IMG/VR virus record: IMGVR_UViG_3300031949_000113 | Coordinates: 1 to 35,275 of that record | Direction: 5' to 3' (one strand) | From: a virus | Taxonomy: Duplodnaviria > Caudoviricetes | DNA: 35,275 bases | Part shown: positions 15,629 to 34,274 of the stretch, piece by piece | Layout of the letters: each line of letters opens with the position of its first letter | Numbering within the stretch: the first letter of the stretch is position 1 | Notes under the pieces: model-generated | The model's input: the letters and a program-made list of their open reading frames with translations, nothing else | Told to the model about the DNA's origin: nothing | Database searches by the model: none | Position numbers and translations under genes: made by a program

Positions 15629-18034
15629 ATGAGTGGGCTGTTTACGATGATGGCGCCGGCGGCGGGAACGAACCGGGTGTTGAATCCGAGCGCGGAGGCG
15701 GCGGGGAATTATACGACCGTCTCCGGTCTGATCGGGCCGCCGACGATCACGCGCGTCACGGATCTGGCGCGACATGGAATCTATTGTTACAAATTGATTC
15801 TGACCGAAACGAACCAGGGCATCGCACTGACCACACCGGCGTTGAGCAATGCCGTGCATGCGGTGAGCTGTTATGCAATCGCGCCGGCCGATATCCAGAG
15901 CATCATGGTGTCATGTGACGGCGGCTCTCATTACAATCTCATGACGGCCCTTCGGGTTGGCGCGATTTGGACACACTATATCGGTAGCGTGCCCGCCATT
16001 CAATGCAATGGCTCGACGGCGACCCTGATCAAGATCGCAGGCACGGGCGGCGGGTGGGGAGGCGGAACATTCTATTTGGACGGAGTGCAGGTCGAGGCGG
16101 GCGCGGGGCCGACGACGTACATCGACGGGGATCAACCGGGGTGCACGTGGGCGGGGGAGTTCCACGCGAGCGCGAGCACGCGAGATGCGCTGTATCGCGG
16201 CGGCGGCGCGGAAGTGAATCTCGACGATTACGGGGTGACGGTATTCCGCGCAGTCGCGGGATTGGGGCTGCCGCCGATCACAAATAATTTGCAGGATTAC
16301 GCATTGCTGCCCGGCGCGCAGTTTCAGTCGACACGGATTCAGCCGCGTATCATCGATCTAGTGGTGTCGGCGAGTGCTACGACGCTGGCCGGGCTGCTGG
16401 CGAAGCGGCAGGCGTTGATCGATCTCTTGAGCCCGATCGGGGCCTACGGGGTGCAGCCGATCCGGTTAGGATATTGGGGCAATCCCGATCGGCCAGTCTA
16501 TTTGAATGCGCGCTACGTGCAGGGATTGCAGTTTGCCAATGTCGAGGGCTTCATCGAGCAGCCGGTGATCCGGCTGCTGTGCGAGGATCCATTCTGGTAT
16601 GAGGATGATCAAGAGCAGGCCGCGCTGGATTATAGCCAGAGCGTGAGTGACGCGGATTTTGCGCTGCGGCGCGATAACGGTGAATGGCAATCGCTCGGCA
16701 CGGGCTTCAGCGGCGGCGGCGTGAATGTCATCGCGATCGATCAATCGCGCGGGCGGATCTATTTCGGTGGATCGTTCACGAGCGCCAACGGCGTGAGCGT
16801 AAATCGGATCTGCTATTGGAACGGGTCCACTTTCGTGGCGCTGGGCAGTGGCCTCAATGCGAGTGTGATCAGTCTGGCCATCGCGCCGAATGGCGATGTT
16901 TGGGTGGGCGGAGAATTCGGGACGGCGGGCGGATCGACTGCGTATGGATTGGCGCGCTGGAACGTGGCCGCTGAGACATGGACCGGGTTCACCAACGGCG
17001 TCGGCACCACCTACATCAACGCCATCGCGATCGATCACAATAACAACGTCTACATCGGCGGCTATTTCACCAATTTCGATGGCATCGCCGCAGCCGATTA
17101 TGTGGCGAAATATAATGGCAGCACGTGGGCGGCGCTGGGCACGTCGCCGTTTGATGTGCAGCAATTTCCGCGGCGCTATCATTCCCTGGCGTGCGATGCA
17201 GATGGCAATTTGTACGCGGGCAGTCGGGCGACGACGGGACCGGCGACGGTGTGCGCACTTTATAAATGGAATGGCGCCACGTGGACGACGATCGGATCGA
17301 CGGATAGCATCGTCAACAGCGGTGTCAATGCGCTCGCATTCGACGCCGGCGGCAATTTGTATATCGGCGGACGATTCGGATCGATTGGTGGGGTGACGGC
17401 GAGCAATGTTGCGCTGTGGAATGGTCAGGCGTTCATCGCATTGGGCAGCGGGGTCGGCGTCGAGGTGCACGATCTGGTGCTGGCCGGCGACGTGCTCTAT
17501 GTCGGCGCGAATGCGGTCGGATTGGCGAGCGCGGATTTTTTCGCGGCCTGGAATGGATCGGTCTGGATCATGGTCGATGTCGATCTGCCGGCGACGTCGC
17601 TGGTGCTGGCCATGGGGGCACTCGGCGAGCGACTGTTCATCGGATTCGATCAGGGCGGGACGGCGACGGCGGCGGCGATTAATACTGTGACATGCGGCTC
17701 GACGATCGAGACCTATCCGATCGTGACCTTTGTCGGACCGGGCACGCTCGAATGGCTGGAGAATCAAACGACTGGCAAGCGGCTCTATCTCAATCTGACG
17801 GCGCAGGCCGGCGAGACGATCACGATCGATTTGCGGACGGGCGCGAAGACGATCGTTTCGGATTGGCGCGGATCGATGATGACGGCGCTGCTGCCAAATT
17901 CGGATTTCGGATCATGGCATCTGGCGCCCGGCGCGAACACGATCGCGGCATATGTAACGGGCAGCTCGGGCGCGACGATGTTGATCATGCGGTGGACGCC
18001 GGTGCACGGGAGTGTGGATGGAGTGCATGCGTGA
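15629..18034 (+). CDS. Distal tail (Dit)-like protein with N-terminal CBM-like domain and inserted beta-propeller
   Basis: TNRVLNPSAE..FYLDGVQVE (CBM-like); GLGLPP..RIQPR.I.L and LLCEDPFWY (Dit N-part); W/YNG.TW..LG repeats; YPIVTF.GP..GETITID..LAPGANTI (Dit C-part). Confidence 0.82.
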   Translation: MSGLFTMMAPAAGTNRVLNPSAEAAGNYTTVSGLIGPPTITRVTDLARHGIYCYKLILTETNQGIALTTPALSNAVHAVSCYAIAPADIQSIMVSCDGGSHYNLMTALRVGAIWTHYIGSVPAIQCNGSTATLIKIAGTGGGWGGGTFYLDGVQVEAGAGPTTYIDGDQPGCTWAGEFHASASTRDALYRGGGAEVNLDDYGVTVFRAVAGLGLPPITNNLQDYALLPGAQFQSTRIQPRIIDLVVSASATTLAGLLAKRQALIDLLSPIGAYGVQPIRLGYWGNPDRPVYLNARYVQGLQFANVEGFIEQPVIRLLCEDPFWYEDDQEQAALDYSQSVSDADFALRRDNGEWQSLGTGFSGGGVNVIAIDQSRGRIYFGGSFTSANGVSVNRICYWNGSTFVALGSGLNASVISLAIAPNGDVWVGGEFGTAGGSTAYGLARWNVAAETWTGFTNGVGTTYINAIAIDHNNNVYIGGYFTNFDGIAAADYVAKYNGSTWAALGTSPFDVQQFPRRYHSLACDADGNLYAGSRATTGPATVCALYKWNGATWTTIGSTDSIVNSGVNALAFDAGGNLYIGGRFGSIGGVTASNVALWNGQAFIALGSGVGVEVHDLVLAGDVLYVGANAVGLASADFFAAWNGSVWIMVDVDLPATSLVLAMGALGERLFIGFDQGGTATAAAINTVTCGSTIETYPIVTFVGPGTLEWLENQTTGKRLYLNLTAQAGETITIDLRTGAKTIVSDWRGSMMTALLPNSDFGSWHLAPGANTIAAYVTGSSGATMLIMRWTPVHGSVDGVHA

Positions 18035-20424: not shown

Positions 20425-20453
20425 AGAGCGGCCGGGGGGCCGCTCTTTTTTTT
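20425..20453 (+). terminator. Rho-independent terminator ending the late operon
   Basis: AGAGCGGCC-GGGG-GGCCGCTCT followed by a T-run. Confidence 0.85.
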
Positions 20454-20481
20454 GTCCGCAGATTTTCGCAGTGGGCGCAGA

Positions 20482-20535
20482 TTAGGGAGTGCGGCGGGCG
20501 GGGTTGGTGATGGTGACGGTGAAGTCGGTGGACAT
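20482..20535 (-). CDS. Possible 17-aa micro-ORF MSTDFTVTITNPARRTP
   Basis: TAAGGAGG immediately upstream; last ORF before the convergent terminator. Confidence 0.35.
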   Translation of the reverse strand: MSTDFTVTITNPARRTP

Positions 20536-20543
20536 GGGCCTCC

Positions 20544-20597
20544 TTATCGGCGGATGGGGGGATTCGAGATTCCAATTATGGGTATGTCTGCGGACAT
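20544..20597 (-). CDS. Possible 17-aa micro-ORF MSADIPIIGISNPPIRR
   Basis: ATG overlaps the ATPase stop (TGATG). Confidence 0.3.
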   Translation of the reverse strand: MSADIPIIGISNPPIRR

Positions 20598-22540
20598 CAG
20601 ACAAGGGTCGCCAGGATCGCGCCGAGTTCCTGGCTGGCTTTCTGGTAGGCGCTGCCGCCGTGGACGCCCCAGACGTGCTCAATGATCTTGCTGATGGGCA
20701 TGCGCTCTTTGAGCAGTTGGCGGATTTGATCGCGCCGGGTCGGGTCCACGTCCGGCGCCCCTTCGGTTTCCCCTTCCGGGCCGCTTCGAATGCCCCTTCC
20801 ATTTGACCGGTTGCCGCTTCCATTGCCCCTTCCTGGCGCCCCTTCCGAAGGGGCGGAAGTGGCTAGAATGGCTCTGACGTCGGCTTCGGTGGTGTTGGGG
20901 ATGGCGACAGCCTGGGTGCGGACCGGACCATTCAGCAAGGCGACGCCGGGCGGCAGGTCTTCGACGAGCCGGGCGTGGTCGGGGTCGAAGCCAATCAGGC
21001 GGGCCTGGGCGGCGGTGGTCTGAAACGCATAGCGGCTGCTGAAGGCGTCGCGCATCAGGGAGCCATTGAACAGACTGGCGGGCATGCCCTGGCTGGCGAT
21101 GAGGGCGAACATCTGGAACTTGCGACCCTCGAGCACGATGCGACTGGAGAGGGAGAGGGAGGCGGGCAGCGATTGAAACAGGATCGGCGCTTCGTCGAGG
21201 AGCAACATCATGGCGCGCTCGGTATGCAGGTGGCCGTCAATGCGGCGCTTGAGTTCGCGCTCGATCGCGGTGAGTGACTTTTGAATATCGGCGACGGTGG
21301 TGAAAGCGGCGGCGCCGGGCAGATCTTCGACGATGGAGCCATGCAAATCCCAGATCACGACGTCAGCGCCCACCATCCGGCATTGGAGATAGACGCAGCG
21401 GAGCAGGGTGGACTTGCCCTGGTTGGGGCGGCCAATGATGGCGACGCTGAGCAGGTTGGTGAGGCCGCCATAGATCGGACCGCCGGCGCCGTAGCCGAGC
21501 AGCAGGTGATTGCGGTCGGGCTGCCAGCGCGTGAGGAGCTGGGCGAAGGCGGGGGCGGTGGGGAGTTGGAGTTGACCCTCACCCCGGCCCTCTCCCTGAA
21601 TGGGAGAGGGAGCAGGGAGCAGCGGCACGGCGTCGGATTTGGGGAAGACGCCGATCGCTTCGGCGATGCGGACGAGCTGCTCGCGGCGCGAGTGGTCCAG
21701 TGTCATCGACCAGCGCAGCAGGTCTTCGGCGGTCTGCGCGTCGACGGGTTGGCCGCGGCCGGCGGTGAGCATGTGCGGGCCGATCATCTGCTGGGGATCG
21801 ATCACGTCGCCGGTCTGGGTGAGGATGAGGGCGCGCGTGTTGTTCGGGCCGACGCGGATGGTCGAGGCGCGCACGTCGATGGCATGGGCCAGATTTTTGA
21901 AGACGCGATAGCTGAGACGGATCACGAGATAGGTCAGGCCCGCGCACAGGCCGATAAAGAGCAGCGTCATGACGAATTCTTTGACGCCGGCGAGCGTGGC
22001 TTCGGTCTGACGACGATTCGATTCCACCTGGGCCGCTTCGCTCGTGGCTTTGACGGCGATCGCCGTGGCGGTGGCGTTGATGAGGTCGGCGTCTCTGGTG
22101 GCGGTCTGCGCGCGGGCAATGGCGATCGCGGTCTGGGTGCGCTCGACGATCAGTGCGTCGGCCGTCTGTTGCGCGCTGATGGCCTGCGCCGTGGCGGTCG
22201 CTTTGAGATCCTGCGCGATGGCGGTGCCGGTGGCGTGCAGATGCTGCATGGCGCGCGTGGCTTCGAGCACGGAGGCGTCCTGGGTTTGCTGGCCGGCGAG
22301 TTGGGCCAGGGCCGCGGCTTGAGCCAGATCGATCGCGCGCTTGGTGAGTTGGATGCGATCGTTGGCGGCCTGGGCGACGGCGGTCATGTCGCCGGATTGA
22401 AGCGTCGCTTCGATCTGGGCGCTCTGCAGACGACAGGTCGCGGAGTTGGCGTGCTGATCGCACGGATCGGCATAGCCGCCGGCGGCGCCATCGCAGGCGA
22501 CGAGGAGGAGCAGAGTTAGAGTTAGAGTCAATCGGCGCAT
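20597..22540 (-). CDS. Lipoprotein-anchored FtsK/HerA-like ATPase with coiled coil, TM helix and C-terminal HTH-like domain
   Basis: Likely start 22540 (TAATG overlap), 647 aa. MRRLTLTLTLLLLVAC lipobox, Ala/Thr/Gln coil, TM FVMTLLFIGLCAGLTYLVI, Walker A GRPNQGKS, Walker B LLLDEAP, EGRKF..LIASQ. Confidence 0.85.
   Translation of the reverse strand: MRRLTLTLTLLLLVACDGAAGGYADPCDQHANSATCRLQSAQIEATLQSGDMTAVAQAANDRIQLTKRAIDLAQAAALAQLAGQQTQDASVLEATRAMQHLHATGTAIAQDLKATATAQAISAQQTADALIVERTQTAIAIARAQTATRDADLINATATAIAVKATSEAAQVESNRRQTEATLAGVKEFVMTLLFIGLCAGLTYLVIRLSYRVFKNLAHAIDVRASTIRVGPNNTRALILTQTGDVIDPQQMIGPHMLTAGRGQPVDAQTAEDLLRWSMTLDHSRREQLVRIAEAIGVFPKSDAVPLLPAPSPIQGEGRGEGQLQLPTAPAFAQLLTRWQPDRNHLLLGYGAGGPIYGGLTNLLSVAIIGRPNQGKSTLLRCVYLQCRMVGADVVIWDLHGSIVEDLPGAAAFTTVADIQKSLTAIERELKRRIDGHLHTERAMMLLLDEAPILFQSLPASLSLSSRIVLEGRKFQMFALIASQGMPASLFNGSLMRDAFSSRYAFQTTAAQARLIGFDPDHARLVEDLPPGVALLNGPVRTQAVAIPNTTEADVRAILATSAPSEGAPGRGNGSGNRSNGRGIRSGPEGETEGAPDVDPTRRDQIRQLLKERMPISKIIEHVWGVHGGSAYQKASQELGAILATLV
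21575..21612 (+). repeat. BoxC-like 38-bp repeat, copy 2
   Basis: ACCCTCACCCCGGCCCTCTCCCTGAATGGGAGAGGGAG. Confidence 0.88.
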
Positions 22541-22932
22541 TAGAAGCCCCAATCGCGGAGGGTGTCGGGGTCGATCACCCTCACCCCGACCCTCTCCCTG
22601 ATAGGGAGAGGGAGCACGGCCGGCGCTGGGTTGGTAATTGGTAATTGGTAAGTGACGGGTGATGGTGGCTCGATCGGTTTGGGCGTGTCGAGTTGGAGAT
22701 CGAGATGAAAGTGTTTGGCGATCAGCGCGACGATGAGGCGTTGGCGCAAGAGGCCGAGCAGGGCCAGGCCGAGCAGGGCCAGGCCGACGAGGCATTGCGT
22801 GAGCATCGATGCGATCTGCGCGGCGACGGCGACGAGCGAGACGCTGGCCAGCGCGCCGGCGAGCGAGACGACGGCGGCGGCCAGCGCTATCAGGGCAACG
22901 ACGAACAGGGGGATGAGCAGGATCGCCAACAT
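22540..22932 (-). CDS. Multi-pass membrane protein
   Basis: 130 aa, first ~70 residues almost entirely hydrophobic; translationally coupled to the ATPase. Confidence 0.75.
   Translation of the reverse strand: MLAILLIPLFVVALIALAAAVVSLAGALASVSLVAVAAQIASMLTQCLVGLALLGLALLGLLRQRLIVALIAKHFHLDLQLDTPKPIEPPSPVTYQLPITNPAPAVLPLPIRERVGVRVIDPDTLRDWGF
22577..22614 (+). repeat. BoxC-like 38-bp repeat, copy 3
   Basis: ACCCTCACCCCGACCCTCTCCCTGATAGGGAGAGGGAG. Confidence 0.88.
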
Positions 22933-22934
22933 GC

Positions 22935-22979
22935 TTAGTGGCCACCAGTGTAAGATGGATATGGAGTTGAGTTAGACAT
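22935..22979 (-). CDS. Possible 14-aa leader ORF MSNSTPYPSYTGGH
   Basis: GAGG RBS 5 nt upstream; stop 2 nt before the membrane-protein ATG. Confidence 0.35.
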   Translation of the reverse strand: MSNSTPYPSYTGGH

Positions 22980-23011
22980 GGTTGCCTCACGATCTTGGAG
23001 GCAGTGGGGTG

Positions 23012-23092
23012 TGCTACAATGGGCGCAGCCCGGCACTGCCGTGACAGTTTCGGGTGAGAGCCGCATGATTGGCGGATCCAATCATGCGGCTC
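23012..23092 (+). ncRNA. Putative antisense RNA unit 1 (extended -10 promoter plus two hairpins)
   Basis: TG-C-TACAAT 23012-23020; CCCGGCACTG..CAGTTTCGGG hairpin; perfect 15-bp stem 23058-23072/23078-23092. Confidence 0.55.
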
Positions 23093-23655: not shown

Positions 23656-24665
23656 GAGGTGGCTCCAAAATCTCGATTGTGGATCGAGAGGAATTCTTCC
23701 TGGGCGGCGGTCACTTCGGCGATGAGACGCTGGCGCTCGCGCCAGGCGGCATCGCGTTGGCCGAAGTATTTGCCGGTCTCCAGGTCCTGGCGAAATTGGT
23801 AGAGCGCGGCCGAGGTGACTCGGCAGCGCTGGCGGGCGGCGATGAGTTCATCGGATTCGGGTTCGACGACTGGCCGCGGCGCTGCTGGCGCTGCTGGCGG
23901 CGGTTCGTGGTGATTGAGGCAGCAGGTTATGGCGTAAGTCAAGGCCCCATTGCGGGTGCGGAATTTGATGAGGCCGTTGTCGCCACGGCGTTGCATCTCG
24001 CTCAGCCAGGCCTCGAGGCGGACGACGGTGCACCAGGCATCGGCGAGCACGGCGGCGCGCTTCTCGCCGGTGACGGTGTGCTGCGTGCACCAGCGTTCGA
24101 CGGCGGCGCGCCGATCGGGTTCGGAGATTTTCTCCGATTCCTCTTCTTCTTCAGGATCGATCTGATCGATCTGATCAGATGATCTGATCAGATCAGAAGA
24201 AGAAGATCGCAATTCGGAGAGATTCTCTCCGGCATACATAAGGATGCCAGGGGAATTCTCCGAGGGGGCAAGTCGCAATTGCTGTGTCGCCGGTAGGGAG
24301 TCGGATCGGGATGGAAGCCGATCGTGGAAGTCCGTGGAAGCGGCGAGTGGATGCACAGCCAGGCGACCGATGTCGGTGATGCGCCAAGATTGATGGGGGT
24401 GGCTGCCGGTGTGGGTGGCGAAGCCGTACTGTTCGAGGTCGGCGAGCAGCGGGTCGAGCGTCTTGCGCGGGTCGCGGACTTTGAACATGAAGGCGAGCCG
24501 CGCGGTTTTGATCGCGGCGGGTTTGGCCTGGTCGATCAGTGATAGCCGAAATTGTCGATCGAGGACCATCAGGCAGAGCACGCCGAGGTGGCCGATCTGG
24601 CCGACCAGAGTGCTGACGGCGACGTCGTCGGGATCGTAACGGTCGGTGAACGAGTGAGTGGTCAT
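23652..24665 (-). CDS. Putative replication initiator protein
   Basis: 337 aa; N-terminal wHTH-like region (LADLEQYGFA..WRITD.GR) and a low-complexity middle encoded by DNA repeats, as in phage O-like initiators. Confidence 0.6.
   Translation of the reverse strand: MTTHSFTDRYDPDDVAVSTLVGQIGHLGVLCLMVLDRQFRLSLIDQAKPAAIKTARLAFMFKVRDPRKTLDPLLADLEQYGFATHTGSHPHQSWRITDIGRLAVHPLAASTDFHDRLPSRSDSLPATQQLRLAPSENSPGILMYAGENLSELRSSSSDLIRSSDQIDQIDPEEEEESEKISEPDRRAAVERWCTQHTVTGEKRAAVLADAWCTVVRLEAWLSEMQRRGDNGLIKFRTRNGALTYAITCCLNHHEPPPAAPAAPRPVVEPESDELIAARQRCRVTSAALYQFRQDLETGKYFGQRDAAWRERQRLIAEVTAAQEEFLSIHNRDFGATS
24123..24262. repeat. Putative replication origin: iteron-like palindromes and GATCTGATC repeats
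   Basis: GGAGATTTTCTCCG, GGAGAGATTCTCTCCG and GGGGAATTCTCCG, plus GATCGATCTGATCGATCTGATCAGATGATCTGATCAGATC. Confidence 0.6.
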
Positions 24666-28071: not shown

Positions 28072-28099
28072 GTGGCCTCCAGTTTTAGTTTTGAGTTTG

Positions 28100-29062: not shown

Positions 29063-29950
29063 ATGAGTGCCGTAATCGAGGATTGGATCAATTGGCTGCG
29101 GTTGAGCGACCACAGCGAGACGACGGTGGCTGCCTACCGGTGGGAGATCGAGCATCTGCGCCGGTGGCGCGCCGACACCCACATCGACGGTTTAGGACGA
29201 TCGGACTTGCTGGCGTATATGGCCGAGCGGCGGCTGCTGCCTGGCCGGAAGGAGGAGCAGCTCAGCACGAGCGCGTTGAAGCGGACGGTGAATGCGCTGC
29301 GCTCGTACTACGCTTTCATCGGCTCGACGATCGCGGCGGAGCTGCCCCTGCCCAAACCTAAGTTGCGCGTGCAGCGCTGGCTGAAGTTCGATCAGGCGAT
29401 GGCGTTGCTGTCGGTCTGCGATACGAGCCGGCCGAAGGGCAAGCGCGATCTGGCGATGCTGACGCTGATGCTCGATACCGGACTGCGCGCGGCGGAGGTG
29501 TGCCGGCTGCGCGTGGATCAGGTGGATGTCGCCAGTCAGTCGCTGCACGTGGTGTGCAAGGGAGGCGATGATGAGACGGGGGATTATTCGATCGAGACGG
29601 CGAATTATCTGTCGGCCTGGCTCGCCAGTCGTGAATCGGTGGCGCGCTGCCCGAATGTGTTCGCGTCGTTCAATGGTCAGAATTACGGGGGGGCCTTGAC
29701 GACGCCCGGGCTGCGATGCCTGTTCCGTGCGCTGGGGGAGCGCGCCGGGCTGCCTCATCTGGCGCCGCACGACTTGCGGCGCACGTTTGCGACTTTGACG
29801 ACGCTGTTGGGCGCGCCAGGCCGCGCCGTGCAGGAGGGCGGCCGCTGGCACGATTTGAAGCTGGTGGAGCTTTACACGCGGTCGATTACGTCCAAGCTGA
29901 TTGTGCGATATTCGCCGGTCAGTTATCTGGTGCGGGGAGGGGCATCTTAA
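29063..29950 (+). CDS. int: Tyrosine recombinase / integrase (XerC/D-like, no obvious arm-binding domain)
   Basis: RDLAM..LMLDTGLR..E, KGG, PHDLRRTFAT, GRW and terminal Y; ATG 29063 with GAGG upstream. Confidence 0.93.
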   Translation: MSAVIEDWINWLRLSDHSETTVAAYRWEIEHLRRWRADTHIDGLGRSDLLAYMAERRLLPGRKEEQLSTSALKRTVNALRSYYAFIGSTIAAELPLPKPKLRVQRWLKFDQAMALLSVCDTSRPKGKRDLAMLTLMLDTGLRAAEVCRLRVDQVDVASQSLHVVCKGGDDETGDYSIETANYLSAWLASRESVARCPNVFASFNGQNYGGALTTPGLRCLFRALGERAGLPHLAPHDLRRTFATLTTLLGAPGRAVQEGGRWHDLKLVELYTRSITSKLIVRYSPVSYLVRGGAS

Positions 29951-29980: not shown

Positions 29981-30021
29981 CTGTAGCCCTTGGTTACAGG
30001 TTCGAGTCCTGTACGGCTCAC
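29981..30021 (+). other. Putative attP core: 3' half of a tRNA (Lys-like)
   Basis: T-arm ACAGG-TTCGAGT-CCTGT, acceptor strand ACGGCTC plus A, no 5' half. Inverted CTGTAG/TTACAG flank a 7-bp CCCTTGG spacer. Lies 30 nt after int. Confidence 0.8.
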
Positions 30022-30029
30022 TGAGAGAC

Positions 30030-30500: not shown

Positions 30501-30971
30501 ATGGACATCTTGATCTGGAAAGGCGAGGGTGCTTTTCAAGATGAAGTCGTAGGCGAGTCGCATTATCAACCGGCGTTGAAGCGGATCGCGGCCGGCGAGA
30601 AGCGCAAGCGGGTGATGGCGCGCCTGGTCTGTGAGCCTGAAAATCAATATGATAAGGATGCGGTGCGCGTCGACGTCGACGGGAAAACAGTCGGACATTT
30701 GCCGCGCGAGCGGGCCAAGTTGCATCATCAACGATTGAAGCGGTTGAATCAGCCGACGGCGATCGTCGAATGCGAGGCGGTGATTGTGACGGGATCGCAG
30801 GGAATCAGCGGGGTCTTTTTGGATTTGCCTTTTACGGTGCGCGGTGATCCGGCTGCGAAAGAGCCGGTCGCGCCAAAGTCGGCGAGTGTCGCATTGGAAT
30901 TCAATCCGATTGTTGCTGCGAAATCTGAATCGATCTTACGACGATTGCTGCGCCAGGTGCGGGGCAAATGA
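30501..30971 (+). CDS. HIRAN-domain-like protein
   Basis: EVVGESHYQ, L..EPEN.YD.DAVRV..DG..VGHLPR; GGAGG RBS. Confidence 0.85.
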   Translation: MDILIWKGEGAFQDEVVGESHYQPALKRIAAGEKRKRVMARLVCEPENQYDKDAVRVDVDGKTVGHLPRERAKLHHQRLKRLNQPTAIVECEAVIVTGSQGISGVFLDLPFTVRGDPAAKEPVAPKSASVALEFNPIVAAKSESILRRLLRQVRGK

Positions 30972-33335: not shown

Positions 33336-34274
33336 ATGATGTTGCCTCGACGCGGATTCCTGAAACTGGCGGGCGCGATGGCGCTGGCCGGTTGTCTGCC
33401 GCCGACGCCGACGCCCTCGCCGGTAGCGACGCCGACGCCGATCACGTCGCCGTTACGATTCGCGTCGACGGTGGTCAGCAAGTTGGGGATTCATTCGATC
33501 GGGCCACGTAACACGGGGGTGCACGATCTATTCGATCGGCTCGAGGCGGCGGGCCGGCAGATTGCAATCGTGAAATGCCGCGATGATATGGGCGTGGCGA
33601 ATCTGGCGGCGAGTCATTGGCCGCAGGCGATCACGATCGGGGCGTTTACAGATTACGATGGCGCGCTGAATTTCGATGAGGATGATTGGTCGGATTTTCG
33701 AGAGCGCGCGCGGCGCAATCCATCGATCCGATATTGGGAGTTGTTGAATGAGATTGATGGGGAATGGATCACTCAAGCCGATCTCTATATCCGGCTTATG
33801 CCGCGCTTTGAAGACGAGGGTTGGCGCCTGGTCATGTTTAACTGCGCGACGGGCACGCCACATTATCCGCGGGATGATGGTGGCGTGGCGTACGCGCAGA
33901 TCGCGCGGGCGTGCGCAGCGGGCCAGGCCGGCGGGCATATCGTCGGAGTGCATGGCTATGGATTCGATCGAGCGAATGAATTGCTTCGGCATCGATCGCT
34001 GGCACGATATTTGATCGAGCAGGGAGCACGGACGAAGATCGCGCTGACGGAGTTCGGGCCGTGGGAGGGAACGTTCGAGGGGACGGCGGATTTCATGGGC
34101 TGGTGCACATCGATTGATCCGGCGCTGATGCAAGATGAGGACATGATCGGCGGGGCGTTGTGGACGCTGGGCGGCGGGTGGGCGGATTACACGCCGGCGA
34201 TGCCGGCGTTGACGGAGTATCTGGCGACGGTAACGCGACACTATGCAGTGCAGTTGCCGATGGTGATGAGATGA
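33336..34274 (+). CDS. Tat-signal lipoprotein with putative clan GH-A glycoside hydrolase domain
   Basis: PRRGFLK twin-arginine motif, LAGC lipobox, PT linker, WELLNE, GVHGY, IALTEFG, C-terminal YAVQLPMVMR. Confidence 0.78.
   Translation: MMLPRRGFLKLAGAMALAGCLPPTPTPSPVATPTPITSPLRFASTVVSKLGIHSIGPRNTGVHDLFDRLEAAGRQIAIVKCRDDMGVANLAASHWPQAITIGAFTDYDGALNFDEDDWSDFRERARRNPSIRYWELLNEIDGEWITQADLYIRLMPRFEDEGWRLVMFNCATGTPHYPRDDGGVAYAQIARACAAGQAGGHIVGVHGYGFDRANELLRHRSLARYLIEQGARTKIALTEFGPWEGTFEGTADFMGWCTSIDPALMQDEDMIGGALWTLGGGWADYTPAMPALTEYLATVTRHYAVQLPMVMR

Follow-up and report, generated by a model that had tools for sequence, protein, structure and literature searches.

The systems closest to the locus described here are those of Streptomyces, in which TraB is reported to bind the 8-bp repeats of clt and to deliver double-stranded DNA (PMC12857230, PMC4447253). 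Plasmid-phages that conjugate and also form particles are on record (PMC4170104), and SpdB2 homologues found on actinophages have been discussed as proteins that might spread phage DNA (PMC4447253). Actinophages with Tra-like motors are already known: the tailed phages of this kind comprise gp71 of ZL12 and six further records, with five actinophage names in all. The present work concerns a stretch of 35,275 nucleotides, hereafter called the window, which covers positions 1 to 35,275 of the IMG/VR record IMGVR_UViG_3300031949_000113 and corresponds to a near-complete 35-kb temperate siphophage. A gene located on its minus strand encodes an FtsK/HerA-type ATPase endowed with a lipoprotein signal, and carries an inverted array of 8-mers within its own coding sequence. 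The domains of this protein, its intact motifs, the conserved lipobox, the existence of the array at the DNA level, the linkage of array and gene, and the covariation of one residue with one base together make it somewhat more probable than not that the gene encodes a TraB/clt-like pump, which would move excised phage DNA into a neighbouring cell without a virion.

A membrane-anchored FtsK/HerA-type motor

The ATPase gene starts with an ATG at 22540 and ends at 20597 on the minus strand. Its product of 647 residues combines a lipoprotein signal, a helical ectodomain, a transmembrane (TM) helix, an FtsK/HerA ATPase, a linker and a three-helix helix-turn-helix (HTH) domain. The anatomy put forward in the original prediction (an LVAC lipobox, a cysteine pair, an Ala/Thr/Gln helix, a TM helix, the ATPase and C-terminal helices) was confirmed. 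The signal peptide and lipobox (22493..22540, minus strand; LVAC at residues 13-16, with Cys16), recognized by pattern, display the basic N-region, the hydrophobic stretch and the lipobox cysteine of bacterial lipoproteins, and lipidation is predicted from them. Conservation of the lipobox had been named in advance as a test; of 22 full-length homologues, 20 show its pattern, whereas 5000 shuffles of the N-termini gave 1.2 on average (maximum 6). The pair Cys27/Cys36 is kept in 18 of the same 22 proteins. Composition and the structure model delimit next an Ala/Thr/Gln-rich helical region (residues 34-186, 153 residues; 21983..22441, minus strand; 27% Ala, 13% Thr and 12% Gln), predicted to lie outside the cell and likely to form a two-helix hairpin. 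The model (predicted template-modelling score, pTM, 0.48) contains two helices, 34-103 and 112-226, separated by a break of low confidence (104-113), and the hairpin is inferred from this secondary structure. A hydropathy peak followed by R208, R212 and K215 marks the single TM helix (about residues 183-207; 21920..21992, minus strand), found at the matching place in 18/18 of the first full-length homologue rows.

In the wider family, two kinds of N-terminus occur, one with a lipobox (pattern found in 31 of 123, certainly including false cases) and one with a first hydrophobic helix; a second helix often follows this first anchor by 5-60 residues. This short spacing suggests that the lipid anchor and the TM helix likely sit in the same membrane and that the long form has an enlarged outer hairpin. 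A helix bridging two membranes, from lipid to TM, was rejected since many relatives space both anchors a few residues apart.

The ATPase domain (residues 325-562; 20855..21568, minus strand) was delimited by motifs, profile and fold. It displays, on a RecA-like fold, the features expected of the FtsK/HerA superfamily, namely Walker A (GRPNQGKS, 370-377), Walker B (DE, 449-450), an arginine finger (R473) and a glutamine sensor (Q484). Residues G375, K376, D398 and R433 are invariant in 123/123 homologues, D449/E450 is kept in 122/123 and R473 in 119/123. Profile searches matched EccC (4e-14), TcpA (2e-11) and FtsK (7e-10), and the fold search named the same three, so that the FtsK/HerA-type ATPase of the original prediction is supported as a motor of this superfamily with intact catalytic motifs. 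A GTPase was discarded, the match being limited to Walker A. No Pfam or PHROGs family scored above cut-off for the ATPase, which also lacks any match to the FtsK_alpha or FtsK_gamma domain. By tblastn, no relative was found in 50,697 GenBank phage records, and the only matches were 7 weak ones, in Streptomyces plasmids. A metagenome scan, with 1/64 parts read, returned Walker A noise only, and 9 loci from it were left unused. A search of cluster representatives yielded 719 proteins at E <= 0.001, the best 150 of which were used. In a tree of 27 rows with long branches, a 92/91 branch separates 16 family rows and a pRL2-11-like protein from 7 Tra proteins, FtsK and TcpA; the TraB rows do not make up one group.

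EccC, the top match by profile and by fold, speaks for a membrane complex with incoming DNA or the envelope as its target, in superinfection exclusion, help to genome entry or EccC-like protein export, the array then being an autoregulatory operator of the HTH. Phage lipoproteins often serve exclusion, and an antisense promoter-like motif upstream of the module (see below) fits the same reading. The protein has, however, one ATPase domain only, and no WXG100 or other type VII gene was found among the 44 window proteins. Furthermore, the position of the array, close to the 3' end of the last gene, is a poor one for repression, and the same gene and array occur on integrative elements devoid of virion genes. 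Exclusion or export is on balance improbable.

An inverted array of 8-mers inside the motor gene

Short repeats were first flagged by a repeat finder at 20757-20833. They belong to an inverted array of nine 8-mers of the form [GC]GAAG[CGT]GG (20758..20862, two on the plus strand and seven on the minus strand), which occupies 105 bp in the linker codons between motor and HTH; in the direction of the gene, two copies point back and seven forward. A search for 8-mer recognition repeats had been proposed as a check, and these are indeed present, inverted and inside the ATPase gene itself. The array of the window has its own variant word, GGAAGGGG. The long lipoprotein form of the protein occurs in five other phage records (G002-G005 and G406), all of which carry an array at the same place, mostly with the backward copies first. 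Six to nine copies are found in a 170-nt interval of the linker in 6/6 phages, against 0.02-0.16 expected. In an unbiased 7-mer scan, the linker array ranks first, alone or tied, among the clusters of the genome in five of the six phages, and fifth in G004, which is rich in similar heptamer repeats. When the genes were resampled synonymously with the protein kept, the observed count was reached in 0/20,000 draws at 7/7 loci. The array exists therefore at the DNA level, and an amino-acid repeat was ruled out on the same basis. Of 28 gaps tallied between copies, 15 measure 12 nt; one frame per orientation holds 38/46 copies, and those of the window use three frames.

The linkage between array and gene was also observed from DNA alone. 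Scanning all IMG/VR contigs for the inverted pattern detected 85 loci. Those with at least five inverted copies lie inside a gene of the family in 8/9 cases, those with fewer copies in 1/76. Among these eight, four were already in hand, one is a new distant member and three are near-copies of one further phage; the ninth locus, outside the family gene, belongs to a giant-virus contig. A same-direction triple pattern (12/64 parts read) gave 123 viral loci, a single one of which contains the gene, and it is the one with inverted copies. The cluster scan was likewise applied to Streptomyces plasmids, where it found clusters right behind traB in pSN22, pJV1 and pSG5 and not in pIJ101 (3/4 plasmids), their identity with clt being judged by position. 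By analogy, the inverted array is a candidate clt-like loading site. Elsewhere in the genome, scattered 8-mers have a strand bias equal to that of permuted words, which follows the base skew, so that a genome polarity resembling the KOPS (FtsK orienting polar sequences) was excluded.

The main rival to transfer is a segregation or tethering device, in which the motor would act on the array like FtsK/SpoIIIE at the closing septum, either to clear the excised circle or to hold it, so that it passes to the daughter compartments and no DNA leaves the lineage. The same anatomy fits, and the gene lies in the replication/partition arm of the window, of G002 (ParM-like, ParB) and of G406 (ParA and a ribbon-helix-helix protein). 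A precedent exists in SpdA2, which binds a motif, sps, in its own gene and, in the account given in PMC4170104, affects stability and not transfer; it counts also against transfer itself. The array, however, tracks the ATPase and not the Par type: G003 and G004 show no Par gene, and a ParB centromere was rejected because the array follows the ATPase across phages with ParB, ParM, ParA or none. Integrating phages need no such device while integrated, and a long outer helix, a lipid anchor and a disulfide pair are superfluous for sorting inside one cell. The absence of KOPS-like polarity beyond base skew argues in the same direction. Segregation within the lineage appears unlikely, without being negligible.

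In the window, the ParB-like gene (26687-25092, minus strand) precedes the module on the same strand. The original prediction had placed the module at the end of a ParB/replication operon; strand and downstream position hold, and a single operon is less certain than stated, given the 119-nt gap, with a 15-bp hairpin, that separates the module from the preceding gene. The proposed tie to ParB itself did not extend to the related phages, only one of five carrying a ParB gene.

One residue covaries with one base

The C-terminal HTH (residues 600-646; 20603..20743, minus strand) is known from the structure model (predicted local confidence, pLDDT, 88), in which three helices and no strand are seen and the chain ends with helix 3. 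Its best fold matches are Tc3 transposase and the HTH domains of the Sin and Tn3 resolvases; Foldseek gave no significant match for it. Binding of the 8-mer array by this domain is predicted on the strength of a covarying pair, formed by the first base of the 8-mer and the residue located after a Gly-Gly turn, just before helix 3. At loci where this residue is Arg (G002, G003, G004, L020 and L083), 30/30 copies begin with G; where it is Asp or Glu (G406, G005, L076 and L242), 24/24 begin with C. Serine loci are less uniform: the window has 6 copies with G and 3 with C, L081 and L082 are mixed, and the L235 group has 5 G. Three loci (L076, L083 and L242) fitted the rule after it had been drawn. 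Proteins available without their DNA fit as well: P0020 (Glu) has 0 G-type against 4 C-type peptide words, P0009 (Asp) has 1 against 2, and G prevails over C in all ten Arg proteins with such peptide words. On the tree, 4 changes are needed to account for the acidic residue, and well-supported branches force at least 3 of these (L242 lies outside the tree); taken by themselves, the four contrasts do not reach significance in a sign test.

Proposed cell-to-cell transfer and the points against it

A motor, an anchor, an HTH and an array of its own match the logic of TraB and clt. According to the transfer model, the FtsK-type motor, with its lipid signal and single TM helix, would likely assemble as a ring in the host membrane, and its HTH would bind the inverted array in the motor's own gene. 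Excised double-stranded phage DNA would then be pumped, virion-free, through a septum or to a cell in contact. The 153-residue helix would fold back as a hairpin of about 11 nm reaching into the wall, with both anchors in one membrane. As the array points both ways, a single site of the circle would suffice for loading motors in either direction.

Several observations weigh against transfer, in addition to the SpdA2 precedent. The ATPase family forms a branch of its own (92/91) apart from TraB and Tra, and TraB proteins score below TcpA and FtsK on the family profile (8e-10 to 2e-3). The HTH has no wing, and its best fold matches are middling (Z 5.2-5.5). The resemblance to TraB advanced in the original prediction was thus not borne out as membership, owing to this separate branch and wingless HTH. 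The rule linking residue and base was formulated on the first 7 loci, with scan patterns that allowed only G or C at the base in question. Moreover, L017 has an Arg without an array, and in L075 and L080 the words are different or absent, which restricts the rule to the [GC]GAAG[CGT]GG word class. An array of at least five copies of any word was found in only 7/28 wider-family loci, some of them with other words. On the side of the neighbours, the membrane gene of the window matches the profile of its relatives over the last 13 columns only (probability 42%), and the window has neither a match to the Ala/Gln-rich membrane gene found downstream in the relatives nor an SpdB2-like gene. Finally, the long lipoprotein form at full length had no chromosomal match in the 401 + 401 Chloroflexota genomes sampled.

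A bolder proposal can be formulated, to which we would grant a little less than an even chance: one lineage among the temperate phages of the Chloroflexota would possess, as a second means of spreading, a one-gene, virion-free conjugation unit, with a lipid-anchored wall-spanning needle, its own inverted loading site and a minimal HTH whose code of one residue and one base is retuned from phage to phage, each phage pumping only its own genome along the filament. If this is true, temperate phages of an abundant and poorly cultured phylum spread from cell to cell particle-free, beyond the reach of receptor-based defence, and relaxase-free conjugation of double-stranded DNA extends beyond actinomycetes. 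With a loading site inside the motor gene, any DNA acquiring this gene would become self-transmissible; the occurrence of the gene both on phage backbones without kinship and on small integrative elements would thereby be accounted for. The covariation also offers a cheap test of cargo choice by such motors, with a 54-residue domain and 105 bp of DNA.

Neighbouring genes

A 130-residue membrane protein ending in DWGF is encoded directly upstream (22540..22932, minus strand), its stop codon overlapping the ATPase start as TAATG. A gene for a membrane protein ending in DWGF or DWGW abuts the ATPase start in three of the four relatives with upstream DNA, so the coupled membrane protein of the original prediction is a conserved neighbour; the proposed co-occurrence in related phages holds for this gene and fails for ParB (1/5). 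By analogy with Spd proteins, it may be an accessory subunit. The protein of the window is 14-23 residues shorter than those of the relatives and more diverged. No homologue was found with it among 1333 candidates, and a complex prediction with residues 178-565 of the ATPase yielded no answer (score 0.00).

A 14-codon open reading frame (ORF; 22935..22979, minus strand) with a good ribosome-binding site lies 47 nt before the membrane gene, out of frame. It was described in the original prediction as a leader; the ORF is present, and a regulatory leader peptide is disfavoured by a negative codon score (-3.8) and by its resemblance to a displaced start. Its start is 41 nt behind an ATT.TAGCACA motif that also occurs 36 nt before the membrane-gene start in G002, and the ORF is likely the displaced, out-of-frame start of the membrane gene. 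The region is identical in another assembly (depth 64, 0 differences), whose run may be the source sample and hence not independent.

The copy of the window may therefore be partly eroded, with a displaced membrane-gene start and a third gene missing. Decaying cargo, that is, a module active in an ancestor or donor element and idle in this phage, would account for the out-of-frame start, the shortened core of the membrane protein, the missing downstream gene and two REP-like (repetitive extragenic palindromic) insertions. One of these hairpins is inserted in frame in the ATPase gene (21576..21617), outside the mechanism, and is absent at that place from P0003, a protein 71% identical to the ATPase; the other lies inside the membrane gene (22578..22619). 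The ATPase frame is nevertheless intact with all its motifs, a relative 71% identical exists, the array is complete with its own variant word, and the membrane gene retains a possible ribosome-binding site and the TAATG overlap. Decay has accordingly a low probability in our judgement. The REP-like hairpin is present in three copies in the window (13676, 21576 and 22578), and other contigs from the same run hold numerous similar ones.

Upstream of the module, an extended -10-like motif, TGTGCTACAAT (23010..23020, plus strand), is antisense to it and shared with G002, where its distance to the start of the membrane gene corresponds (-41 in the window, -36 in G002); it was not found in G003, G004 or G406. 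It occurs once more in the window, at 28098. About 40 nt after the motif at 23010 stands a 15-bp hairpin (-28 kcal/mol), and the segment 23010-23095 (plus strand) could possibly encode a short antisense RNA just upstream of the module.

Downstream, an Ala/Gln-rich signal-peptide protein with a late TM helix follows the ATPase in four of the five relatives, and the fifth has an overlapping 231-residue gene with a hydrophobic start. In the window, only about 190 bp separate the ATPase gene from a convergent terminator. A short ORF remnant (20482-20538, minus strand) is visible behind the ATPase stop, ahead of a bidirectional terminator at about 20428-20454. An SpdB2-like layout (TM, coil, HTH) is found near the ATPase in G003 and G004, with no sequence match to plasmids. 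Genes with this layout (about 3 TM, coil, C-terminal HTH) were located at L042:7536-8453, L046:16874-17599, L033:2873-3763 and L032:2800-3927. Two of these four carry DNA-level repeats of their own, a feature also seen in membrane genes of Galactica, P1312 and pSN22.

Related phages, integrative elements and host

Completeness of the five related records ranges from 47 to 86%, and two of them are classified as proviruses. Pfam recognized a terminase in four of five, an integrase in four of five, and a capsid match in the one without terminase. Their head modules differ, which indicates that the ATPase gene moves between backbones. On a chromosomal contig (L052), six GGAAGTGG words accompany the gene. 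Adjoining genes encode an integrase, a Cro-type HTH and a rolling-circle Rep, and farther out there are genes for methyltransferases; no virion gene was found in this 13.7-kb contig, which ends at the integrase. This setting corresponds to the Int-Rep-Tra layout reported for AICEs (integrative and conjugative elements of actinomycetes) in PMC3218068. Two other chromosomal copies lie among housekeeping genes, with a primase-polymerase or a serine recombinase.

The sole named match is a Chloroflexota metagenome-assembled genome. With 3-4 candidates scored per genome, the family profile matched 11/401 Chloroflexota genomes and a narrower profile 10/401 of one class; the class search around G020 covered 2 genomes only. 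The second cluster of the atlas is commonest in Chloroflexota. The host of the phage is thus likely a member of this phylum; since the long form lacks a full-length match there, the host is inferred, and its filamentous growth more weakly than the phylum. Chloroflexales filaments are described as sharing septa with channels, a possible transfer route (PMC7332563).

Two of the related phages have noteworthy genes elsewhere. A prokaryotic E2 (family D) and a ThiF/E1 gene form a ubiquitin-like conjugation cassette in G003 (L042:16163-19076) and G004 (L046:5621-8262), and the tape-measure protein of G003 (L043:9960-13781) has a Hint/intein-like domain near its C-terminus.

The phage genome

Pfam and PHROGs place terminase, portal, capsid and tail genes all on the plus strand of the window. 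The presence of a terminase agrees with the original prediction that the module is not the packaging motor, a candidate rejected also on account of three different terminase types among the relatives. An integrase is encoded at 29063-29950. The episomal life assumed in the original prediction needs correction, as this integrase and the two proviruses among five relatives do not fit a purely episomal phage. Directly behind the integrase, a stretch resembling a tRNA 3' end (GGTTCGAGTCC, 29990-30025), spotted by eye, is likely the attP core; ARAGORN found no tRNA. Each of the 35 one-kb bins of the window has a positive GC skew, whatever the gene strand, as for one-directional replication. A 337-residue gene without family match (24665-23652, minus strand) contains an inverted GATCAGA array at the DNA level (about 24150-24200), as does a DnaA_N-bearing gene of G002, and is likely a replication initiator carrying its own origin. 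Other genes include an 801-residue distal tail protein (15629-18034) into which a beta-propeller (Rax2-like) region is inserted, a HIRAN-domain gene close to the integrase (30501-30971), and a Tat-signal lipoprotein-like gene adjoining an M23 peptidase (33336-34274), common to G003.

Comparison with known systems

No paper was found on this Chloroflexota family, on the lipoprotein form or on an intragenic inverted array, most subscription journals being outside the search. Chromosomal FtsK/SpoIIIE and the TcpA protein of pCW3 share the motor fold. Compared with FtsK/SpoIIIE, the window protein has no alpha or gamma domain match and no genome-wide oriented sites; compared with TcpA/VirD4, no relaxase or mating-pair gene was found by Pfam and PHROGs among the 44 window proteins, about 20 of which have no family. 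The pRL2-11-like ATPases of Streptomyces linear plasmids, for which the literature searched gave no function, include the closest labelled relative (1.7e-25), fall on the family side of the tree and are overlapped by a small upstream gene; they differ by another C-terminus, a long branch and the absence of a detected array.

The Streptomyces plasmid-phage ZL12, the actinophages Galactica, Hiyaa, Spocter and Keanu, and the Thermobifida phage P1312 are likewise tailed phages with virion genes and, next to membrane genes, a gene of the Tra/FtsK-like kind. On the family profile, the motors of these phages reach only 1e-4 to 6e-4, and they have neither this lipobox form nor an array in the motor gene.

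The most extensive likeness is with the TraB/Tra, clt and Spd systems of Streptomyces (pSVH1, pSG5, pJV1, pSN22, pIJ101, pWTY27 and AICEs). Both combine a membrane-anchored FtsK-like motor bearing a C-terminal DNA-binding domain, a nearby array of 7-8-bp repeats and translationally coupled small membrane genes, without relaxase or type IV secretion system, and both are found on Int-Rep-Tra elements. TraB has two TM helices and a winged HTH, whereas the motor of the window has a lipid anchor, a 153-residue outer helix, one TM helix and a three-helix HTH. The TraB array is direct and behind the gene, with the clt of pWTY27 reported to overlap traA by 16 bp (PMC3583192); that of the window is inverted and wholly intragenic. 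Even if its motor stands on a separate branch of the tree, in a phage of a likely Chloroflexota host, this comparison suggests that the ATPase works like TraB while not being a member of the TraB family.

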